Origin: a virus
Lineage: Duplodnaviria > Heunggongvirae > Uroviricota > Caudoviricetes
DNA: 40,582 nt
Strand: one strand, 5' to 3'
Virus record (IMG/VR): IMGVR_UViG_2778261692_000003
Coordinates: 1-40,582 of that record
Shown: one piece after another, positions 4,439-4,797 of the stretch
Layout of the letters: every line of letters starts with the position of its first letter
Numbering within the stretch: the first letter of the stretch is position 1
Notes under the pieces: generated by a model
The model's database searches: none
Told to the model about the DNA's origin: nothing
What the model saw: the letters and a program-made list of their open reading frames with translations, nothing else
Made by a program: the position numbers and the translations under genes

Positions 4439-4699
4439 ATGTACAGCAAATACGACGAGGCGCAGTTTCACTTGAGACTTCCGCATGAACTCCACGCGAA
4501 AATTAAGCAGCGTGCGAAGATGAATAACAGGTCGCTGAACTCAGAGATAATTGCAGCGATTGAGGAATCATTGGATAAACAAAGCTCTGCATCAGTTTAC
4601 ATTGACGATGCAGAGCGTATGGCAGAACAACAATCTGATATGGTTAAGAAAATTGTCTTTGATACGCTCAAGAAGCTATATAAAAAAGACAGCAGATAA
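4439..4699 (+). CDS. mnt: Mnt-like ribbon-helix-helix repressor
   Basis: Resembles recalled P22 Mnt (FHLRLPHELHAKIKQRAKMNNRSLNSEIIAAIEESL...DAERMAEQQSDMVKKIVFDTLKKLYKK); no arc or ant gene nearby. Confidence 0.7.
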   Translation: MYSKYDEAQFHLRLPHELHAKIKQRAKMNNRSLNSEIIAAIEESLDKQSSASVYIDDAERMAEQQSDMVKKIVFDTLKKLYKKDSR

Positions 4700-4719
4700 C
4701 CATCCGTTACGGAGGATTT

Positions 4720-4797
4720 ATGCACAGAGATATGCTGAATATTGCGTTCTACATATTTGGTTTTTGCACGTTCCTGGTGTTTGCGAAGTTATTCTGA
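4720..4797 (+). CDS. 25-codon hydrophobic small ORF (MHRDMLNIAFYIFGFCTFLVFAKLF) downstream of mnt
   Basis: Hand-translated; GGAGG located 5 nt upstream of the ATG; single predicted TM-like segment; overlaps 3' end of convergent ejection-protein gene; could be chance. Confidence 0.2.
   Translation: MHRDMLNIAFYIFGFCTFLVFAKLF

Follow-up and report, generated by a model that had tools for sequence, protein, structure and literature searches.

A small open reading frame at the 3' end of gene 16 in P22-like phages, predicted to encode a membrane peptide that may act in superinfection exclusion

An orphan mnt gene and a small open reading frame beside gene 16

The window analyzed here, IMG/VR record IMGVR_UViG_2778261692_000003 at its full length of 40,582 nucleotides (nt), is a complete P22-like (Lederbergvirus-type) prophage. 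Our subject is a 25-codon open reading frame (ORF) located in it between an orphan mnt-like repressor gene and the 3' terminus of the gene for a gp16-type DNA ejection protein. The small ORF (positions 4720-4797, plus strand) encodes MHRDMLNIAFYIFGFCTFLVFAKLF, a predicted single-pass membrane peptide belonging to a family of 23-25 amino acids (aa), and is preceded by a Shine-Dalgarno (SD) sequence, GGAGG (4711-4715, plus strand), 4 nt before the ATG at 4720. The mnt stop codon occupies 4697-4699, placing the ATG 20 nt beyond it, and the last 9 nt of the small ORF run convergently over the stop codon of gp16 (4789-4791). The same geometry was found in phages BTP1, Sf6, and L and in an Erwinia locus. 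A preliminary description of this DNA had reported a hydrophobic 25-codon ORF with a GGAGG site 20 nt after mnt; the coordinates are confirmed, and the overlap with the gp16 stop codon is new here.

The mnt-like gene (4439-4699, plus strand; 86 aa) sits between the tailspike and gp16-type genes on the strand opposite the late genes, as described previously for this prophage. Its product contains a ribbon-helix-helix (RHH) domain in residues 7-49 (Pfam Arc, PF03869; E = 7.5e-15) and a C-terminal tetramerization helix in residues 57-82 (Repressor_Mnt, PF11423; E = 8.9e-15), has 48.8% identity with P22 Mnt across 80 aa, and is named "Arc family DNA-binding protein" by the Prokaryotic Genome Annotation Pipeline (PGAP). 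A gap of only 121 bp separates mnt from the tailspike gene (2512-4317, minus strand, start at 4317), which encodes a P22-type head-binding N-terminus (PGAP on a homolog: "phage head-binding domain-containing protein") and whose 5' end we aligned with those of BTP1, Sf6, and L. The ejection-protein genes come after the tailspike gene, likewise on the minus strand, and include the gp16-type DNA ejection (transfer) protein gene (4789-7182, minus strand), whose 797-aa product carries an SLT lytic transglycosylase domain at its N-terminus. Searches with P22 Arc, Ant, SieA, and orf59a (tblastn) returned no match in the whole 40.6-kb window (best E >1). As nothing was found with Arc and Ant, mnt is considered an orphan, and the earlier statement that arc and ant are missing holds across the window. 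The P22 immI module, in which mnt is accompanied by the adjoining arc and ant genes and by the sar antisense RNA, is hence not present as such.

Over its full length, the window peptide MHRDMLNIAFYIFGFCTFLVFAKLF has a grand average of hydropathy (GRAVY) of 1.21, or 1.89 when counted from residue 5, and the mean Kyte-Doolittle value of peptides in the family from residue 5 on is 1.9-2.35. This strong hydrophobicity suggests a single membrane span. A scan detected no terminator at the locus and, considering this together with the 20-nt gap after mnt, mnt and the peptide gene probably share one transcript from the anti-late strand, i.e., in the lysogen. Phage L differs from the window in having a strong terminator after mnt.

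Comparisons among phages assign the peptide gene to the 3' end of the gp16 gene and not to mnt. Sf6 lacks mnt and has a gap of only 164 bp, with homology to the window resuming at the ribosome binding site (RBS)/ATG and the ORF intact. In Gally, where a 171-aa lipoprotein-like gene lies upstream, homology again breaks at the RBS/ATG and the ORF is again intact. BTP1 has the peptide ORF without mnt, and in phage L the ORF adjoins orf62. Sf101 carries the same mnt as the window together with another gp16 end and no peptide ORF. The preliminary description had offered a pair of Mnt and the peptide as one of its options, which these arrangements (peptide without mnt in Sf6 and BTP1, mnt without peptide in Sf101) do not support, given that the peptide gene follows gp16. 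The ORF accompanied the Sf6/L/BTP1-type gp16 C-terminal domain in all 159 loci introduced below, and was absent from Sf101 and P22, which have other gp16 ends. The gp16 ejection protein is a mosaic, of which only the C-terminal part is linked to the peptide gene. The BTP1 gp16 has 655 aa, and its N-terminal sequence is unlike the SLT region of the window protein (compared without a Pfam scan).

Other genes occupy the slot between gene 16 and the tailspike gene elsewhere. A Yersinia aleksiciae locus (L211) with a gp16 relative (69% identical) has no peptide homolog after the gp16 stop codon at ~2086-2088; on the opposite strand, the slot contains another ORF of 42 codons (VLEIASFVALAAIVYLIRQVGILSNRVSELEKITDRLNDKIN), which has a strong SD (AGGAGG) and whose product is hydrophobic at its N-terminus. 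Gally genes 13 and 14 (L004, 941-1360 and 1465-1980) and L orf62 (L318, 2272-2565) begin with lipoprotein-type signal peptides (e.g., LLAGCA, LSGCAT, and LAGCAT) and gave no Pfam match. Gally gene 13 was considered as a SieA homolog and rejected, as it has no similarity to SieA and looks like a lipoprotein. The slot downstream of gp16 may recruit small membrane proteins repeatedly.

Conservation and coding signature of the small ORF

An initial set of loci, collected with a degenerate pattern of the peptide core, was set aside because it forced the core amino acids and was therefore biased toward conservation. It was replaced by sets anchored on the last 200 gp16 residues only. Clade 1, collected via the gp16 C-terminus alone, comprises 78 IMG/VR loci plus the window, and the ATG, the 25 codons, and the stop codon were kept in 79/79 of these loci, in upstream contexts with mnt (42 loci) or of Gally type (25) or Sf6 type (12). 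A species-level genome scan identified distant relatives with gp16 C-termini that are 76-77% identical, including Candidatus Erwinia dacicola (peptide MERDWLNFAFLIFGICVGVALFT) and Pseudescherichia and Escherichia sp. ESNIH1 (peptide MDRDLLNFAFLIFGICVGVALFA). Anchoring on the gp16 end of the Erwinia locus yielded clade 2, which consists of 80 further loci with 85-100% identity in gp16; its 23-codon ORF was intact in 80/80 (L237 confirmed through L230). Pooled, the ORF was intact with ATG and stop codon in 159/159 loci sampled through gp16 alone, covering at least five upstream contexts and phages of Escherichia, Shigella, Salmonella, Klebsiella, Erwinia, and Pseudescherichia. The conservation in related prophages on which the preliminary description had staked the small ORF is thus borne out. 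The SD was kept in nearly all loci, as GGAGG in most and in a weaker form in Sf6- and Gally-type contexts.

Both clades share the RBS GGAGGATTT and the residues M-x-R-D-x-L-N-[IF]-A-F-x-I-F-G, with differing C-terminal halves, and GGAGGATTTATG at the window SD is common to distant clade-2 loci. The family motif is M-x-[RK]-[DN]-x-L-N-[FIL]-[AV]-F-x-I-F-G plus a hydrophobic tail that ends in LF, to which the window peptide (MHRDMLNIAFYIFG...KLF) conforms, and the difference in length between clades (25 vs 23 codons) is in frame. Among the 14 codons that differ between the clade consensuses, 7 have synonymous changes only and 7 change the residue; between the window and the Erwinia locus, the corresponding numbers over the first 16 codons are 9 and 5.

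Substitutions followed a coding pattern. In each clade, the ORF frame had the lowest ratio of nonsynonymous to synonymous nucleotide diversity (piN/piS) among the six frames, at 0.35 in clade 1 and 0.26 in clade 2, and the only other frame with a low ratio was the antisense frame that shares wobble positions. In clade 2, minimum mutations by codon position numbered 17/9/43 (chi-square P = 1e-6), and piS was 0.67 in the ORF vs 0.59 in adjoining gp16. As synonymous diversity in the clade-2 ORF equals that of gp16, the nucleotides are under no constraint beyond that on the protein. Folding of positions 4690-4830 on either strand, compared with shuffled sequences, gave nonsignificant z-scores of -0.47 and -0.30, and Rfam returned no match at E ≤1 for the locus. 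An RNA element was therefore rejected, based on the fold scores, the Rfam result, and the lack of a terminator. A single ORF of this kind could be a product of chance, but its integrity in 159/159 loci sampled independently of it, with coding-type substitutions, could not, and we consider it very probable that the small ORF is a real protein-coding gene.

The gene is widespread and has been overlooked. Using tblastn, the clade-1 peptide was found in six distinct phages, with an annotation in none, and the clade-2 peptide in 29 phage records, including Salmonella phages g341c, BTP1, MG40, ST104, ST64T, L, and SPN9CC, Klebsiella phage phiKp_30, and E. coli phage HF4s. Of 5,426 complete E. coli genomes, 257 contain the clade-1 region. 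In the records inspected, the sole feature beneath the ORF match was the overlapping gp16 gene, and the peptide strings were not found in the literature searched. On these sequence comparisons, the peptides constitute a new, hitherto unannotated small-protein family in P22-like phages, which the annotations consulted for Sf6, L, ST64T, BTP1, and g341c miss because of the length of the gene.

The BTP1 STnc6030 locus and a possible block to DNA delivery

A homolog of the small ORF lies within a transcript that has a published exclusion phenotype. STnc6030 is a 786-nt anti-late-strand transcript of prophage BTP1, antisense to the tailspike gene's 5' end and the gp16 gene's 3' end; it is well expressed in lysogens (mean of 90 transcripts per million) and was classed as non-coding, having no ORF >60 aa (PMC7067206). 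Cloned behind a constitutive promoter, it conferred complete exclusion of BTP1, not of P22, and left the titer of spontaneously induced BTP1 unchanged, which the authors flag as a paradox. Among five escape phages, four different single-nucleotide polymorphisms (SNPs) were present, all of them nonsynonymous and located within 36 bp of the 3' end of gp16 (PMC7067206). We mapped the supplementary coordinates of that study onto the BTP1 record (gp16, 402294-404261; tailspike, 404417-406402; STnc6030, 403942-404727). The BTP1 small ORF is located at 404321-404250 of D23580 (L314, 2501-2572), with the peptide MERDLLNFVFLIFGLVVGKLLFA and the SD GGAGGGTTT. With the published cloning primers at L314 2095-2880, the ORF is inside both the transcript and the clone, and it is the only ATG-initiated plus-strand ORF of at least 20 aa in that stretch.

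The BTP1 and window loci are homologous, and their ORFs share the SD and the way in which they overlap the stop codon of gp16. However, the BTP1 ORF is alone in a 155-bp gap, whereas the window has mnt inserted upstream, and the peptides share their N-terminal 16 residues while differing in the C-terminal half and in length (23 aa in BTP1, 25 aa in the window). Because of its homology to the ORF inside STnc6030, we regard the window locus as a putative superinfection-exclusion determinant, and among the roles offered in the preliminary description an exclusion-like one fits best, given that the BTP1 homolog is within an exclusion-conferring transcript.

The BTP1 escape cluster covers gp16 residues 583-595 (ILGIGTVTNPALV), 60-72 residues from the C-terminus. 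A comparable case is P22 SieA, a 164-aa inner-membrane protein that blocks DNA injection, for which escape mutants have the gp16 changes G532W and P546S plus changes in gp20 (PMC10883804). The last ~150 residues of P22 gp16 align with those of BTP1, L, Sf6, and the window at 36%-39% identity (36% for the C-terminal 149 aa of the window protein). In this alignment, P22 G532 is the invariant G of a TxTGQ motif 7 residues before the BTP1 cluster, and P546 aligns with BTP1 V589, inside the cluster. The homologous segment of the window protein, residues 725-737 (IIGYGTAMNPATT; 4972-5010, minus strand), corresponds to BTP1 583-595 and the P22 P546 region and is the putative target patch; within the C-terminal 200 aa, otherwise a conserved domain, this segment and one other patch vary the most. 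In P22, moreover, the slot of the small ORF is taken by sieA, which is convergent with gene 16 and immediately follows it. No phage record has both, with sieA present in 41 records and the small ORF in 38.

SieA and the peptide are thus alike in their slot, in their encoding on the anti-late strand downstream of mnt, and in SieA escapes falling in a gp16 C-terminal region that aligns with the BTP1 cluster. They differ in size (164 aa vs 23-25 aa with one hydrophobic stretch), and SieA escape also requires gp20 changes. Since no similarity to SieA was found in the window (best tblastn E-value of 1.3), membership in the SieA family is not claimed; we would liken the peptide to SieA in its presumed mode of action only.

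On balance, the evidence tilts toward a mini-SieA-like membrane peptide, made in lysogens, that would block gp16-dependent DNA delivery by incoming phages. According to this scenario, mnt would have come to lie directly upstream of the peptide gene in the window prophage, and Mnt autoregulation would set the expression of a mnt-peptide operon. The peptide, located in the inner membrane, would keep incoming gp16 from finishing the conduit for DNA delivery, an action like that of SieA, to which it is unrelated, and phages could escape through amino-acid changes in the gp16 C-terminal patch (window residues 725-737). The effector would be the peptide rather than antisense pairing, and we give about even chances to the more specific proposal that the 23-25-aa peptide itself acts on this patch, with STnc6030 as its mRNA. 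An entry block fits better than mRNA degradation because infection is stopped, induction is spared, and the escapes are gp16 amino-acid changes. Translation, membrane location, co-transcription with mnt, and the peptide as effector are all points that we infer.

In the published view, STnc6030 is an antisense RNA that pairs with late mRNA, such that the ORF would be incidental or translated to stabilize or Rho-protect the transcript. STnc6030 is indeed detected in lysogens, is complementary to gp16 and tailspike mRNA, and spans the sites of the escape SNPs within its complementary region (PMC7067206), and a 2025 review still lists it as an antisense RNA. Nonetheless, we regard antisense action as an unlikely explanation. 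It leaves unexplained the amino-acid-level conservation of an almost wholly intergenic ORF and its conserved SD, as well as the authors' own paradox that overexpression does not reduce phage yield on induction (PMC7067206). Moreover, single SNPs would be unlikely to abolish pairing across ~320 nt of perfect complementarity, and the gp16 residues altered in every escape belong to the stretch aligning with the site of SieA escape. Northern blots showed species of ~500 and ~480 nt, not 786 nt (PMC7067206). From the mapped transcription start site (TSS), the distance to the small-ORF stop codon is 478 nt, and the proposed "seed" is 650-687 nt away. If they start at this TSS, the species detected would stop short of the seed, although the match in length is only suggestive because the transcript ends are unmapped. 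It is possible that the RNA has a dual function.

The same coding evidence would apply if the product were a real membrane peptide with another role, such as a lysogenic-conversion factor acting on a host membrane protein, or a different way of excluding phages or aborting infection in which gp16 has no part. In bacteria, many small membrane proteins are regulators of larger ones, and the slot between gene 16 and the tailspike gene also houses varied accessory genes (e.g., for lipoproteins). However, the ORF is strictly linked to two related types of gp16 C-terminus and absent with others, and the phenotype of the BTP1 fragment is phage specific with escapes in gp16, which makes a role apart from gp16 improbable.

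A toxin, also suggested in the preliminary description, is disfavored. In size, hydrophobicity, and having a gene opposite another transcript, the peptide resembles type I toxins and further small, hydrophobic peptides of bacteria (e.g., Ibs, TisB, and ShoB), and its neighbor is an RHH repressor of the antitoxin kind (window Mnt additionally matches HicB and FitA-like RHH profiles). Both versions, in which Mnt pairs with a toxin-like peptide or antisense late mRNA controls a type I toxin, are nevertheless very unlikely, as the peptide gene is without mnt in most contexts, Sf101 has mnt without the peptide, and the locus has no dedicated antisense small RNA (sRNA) gene, sRNA family, or terminator. 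In addition, the BTP1 homolog is tolerated under constitutive expression, and lawns expressing the BTP1 fragment still plate P22. The family also differs from type I toxins in its conserved polar N-terminal motif, M-x-R-D-x-L-N, a comparison made without a similarity search against toxin sequences.

Finally, the segment could be conserved but non-coding and open by chance (e.g., a gp16 3' untranslated region, a recombination boundary, or a remnant of a longer gp16), as the gp16-strand register stays open beyond the gp16 stop codon through the small-ORF region and lambdoid phages have conserved module boundaries (a "boundary sequence" is annotated in CUS-3), but the third-position-biased variation, the lowest piN/piS of six frames in both clades, the ATG and stop codon kept in 159/159 loci, and the missing RNA structure signal leave this hardly credible.

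Several observations weigh against a translated exclusion peptide acting on gp16. At the level of coding, codon periodicity is not significant in the less diverse clade 1 alone (16/11/20, P = 0.27), constraint is looser than in gp16 (piN/piS of 0.26-0.35 vs 0.03-0.08), one clade-1 variant has an Arg inside the hydrophobic stretch, and exact look-up of 14 peptide variants among ~15 billion predicted proteins found none, although gene callers rarely report such short ORFs. With regard to the target, the placement of P22 P546 in the BTP1 cluster depends on an alignment at 36%-39% identity, and the linkage of peptide type with gp16 type is expected from adjacency alone; covariation of peptide type and gp16 patch was considered as evidence and rejected, being present but inseparable from physical linkage. 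The BTP1 escape SNPs also fall in the region complementary to the transcript. Moreover, the exclusion phenotype comes from a clade-2 homolog with a C-terminal half unlike that of the window peptide. The BTP1 STnc6030 promoter, located inside the tailspike gene, is not conserved in the window alignment, and the spacer of the Pmnt homolog there is 15 nt. Lastly, phage L has a homolog and yet is described as lacking known sie genes.

If the peptide is the effector, a phage sRNA listed in textbooks would be reclassified and its harmlessness to induced BTP1 explained, offering an alternative mechanism for the published "antisense RNA" and resolving the paradox of exclusion without an effect on induction. 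An unannotated defense gene would then be present in ~5% of complete E. coli genomes and many Salmonella phages, with consequences for the host range that P22-like phages have within E. coli, Shigella, and Salmonella. A peptide that blocks DNA entry would also be a minimal tool for studying channel formation by ejection proteins. The BTP1 and P22 SieA escapes together point to one gp16 segment as a common weak point of P22-like DNA delivery, and the family adds a conserved gene to the well-studied phages Sf6, L, ST64T, BTP1, and g341c.

The ~95-nt spacer between the tailspike start and the stand-alone ORF (BTP1 L314, 2406-2500; L208-L233; Sf6 L003, ~1619-1700) is conserved far above nearby synonymous sites. 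It contains a conserved TATAAT, a TTGCG motif that is repeated, and a hairpin, GCACAAG..CTTGCGC, which reads CCGGACA..TGTCCGG in Sf6, where the change may be compensatory. A canonical sigma-70 promoter was sought for the stand-alone (Sf6/BTP1-type) ORF, but no -35 element was found at 16-18 nt from its TATAAT. The conserved spacer could be the promoter of the ORF or a late-strand signal before the tailspike gene.

The mnt gene, its upstream region, and other features of the prophage

An orphan mnt is ordinary and known from other phages. In its published description, phage L has retained mnt and lost arc and ant, and mnt is likewise carried by ST64T, ST104, and SPN9CC in the same arrangement. 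Phage IME10 has the arrangement of mnt plus small ORF as well, and so do 142 complete E. coli genomes (coverage of at least 80%). An insertion of ~600 bp adjoining mnt, annotated as an HNH endonuclease gene, interrupts the 701-nt region in one E. coli genome (NZ_CM196107.1, 1528870-1530178). Homologs of mnt in Sf101 (NC_027398.1, 14284-14577), SPN9CC, ST104, and others have the RefSeq name "partition protein ATPase," and the Sf101 GenBank record (KJ832078) uses "chromosome segregation ATPase." On RHH repressors of 83-97 aa, these ATPase names look like propagated misannotations.

The region between the tailspike gene and mnt was aligned with P22, for which the operator and Pmnt are annotated, and with phages L and VSe13. 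A candidate Mnt operator, ATACCGAAATGGTAC, was identified at 4364-4378, an ACC-N5-GGT dyad at the position homologous to the mnt operators of P22 and phage L. Its symmetric arms are only 4 bp, its ACC-N5-GGT core is the same as in phage L, and it is kept in VSe13, whose Mnt is 66% identical to that of the window. A stronger, near-perfect 23-bp palindrome (ATGCAACCATGATGTGATTGCAT, 4343-4365) also lies between the tailspike start and mnt and is perfect in IME10. It was considered as the operator and rejected in favor of 4364-4378, since the palindrome has no second copy in the window and VSe13 does not retain it, while 4364-4378 is at the homologous position. The alignment also places a homolog of P22 Pmnt at 4381-4407 (plus strand; TTGAGT, a 15-nt spacer, and TACGAT), and the short spacer suggests that this promoter may be weak. 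A promoter scan identified a second promoter-like site, CTGACA-17-AATGAT, at 4311-4339.

The window thus resembles P22 immI in having a Mnt with both Pfam domains, in the position and orientation of its gene, and in a homolog of Pmnt and a candidate operator at corresponding places. The two differ in the Mnt recognition strand (PHFNFRMP in P22, AQFHLRLP in the window) and in the sequence of the operator, a candidate one in the window. From these comparisons, Mnt appears to be an immI remnant that probably still autoregulates at its candidate operator. An immI remnant was among the options in the preliminary description, and this fits Mnt; the small ORF is tied to gp16. Mnt may also regulate tailspike read-through, another of the options offered there.

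Elsewhere in the window, an integrase gene (1-1158) and an O-antigen acyltransferase gene (1356-2489) were identified. A Rha-family regulator with Phage_pRha and ORF11CD3 domains is encoded between the lysis and packaging genes (20180-20941, minus strand) and is the sole candidate in the window for an antirepressor-like protein.

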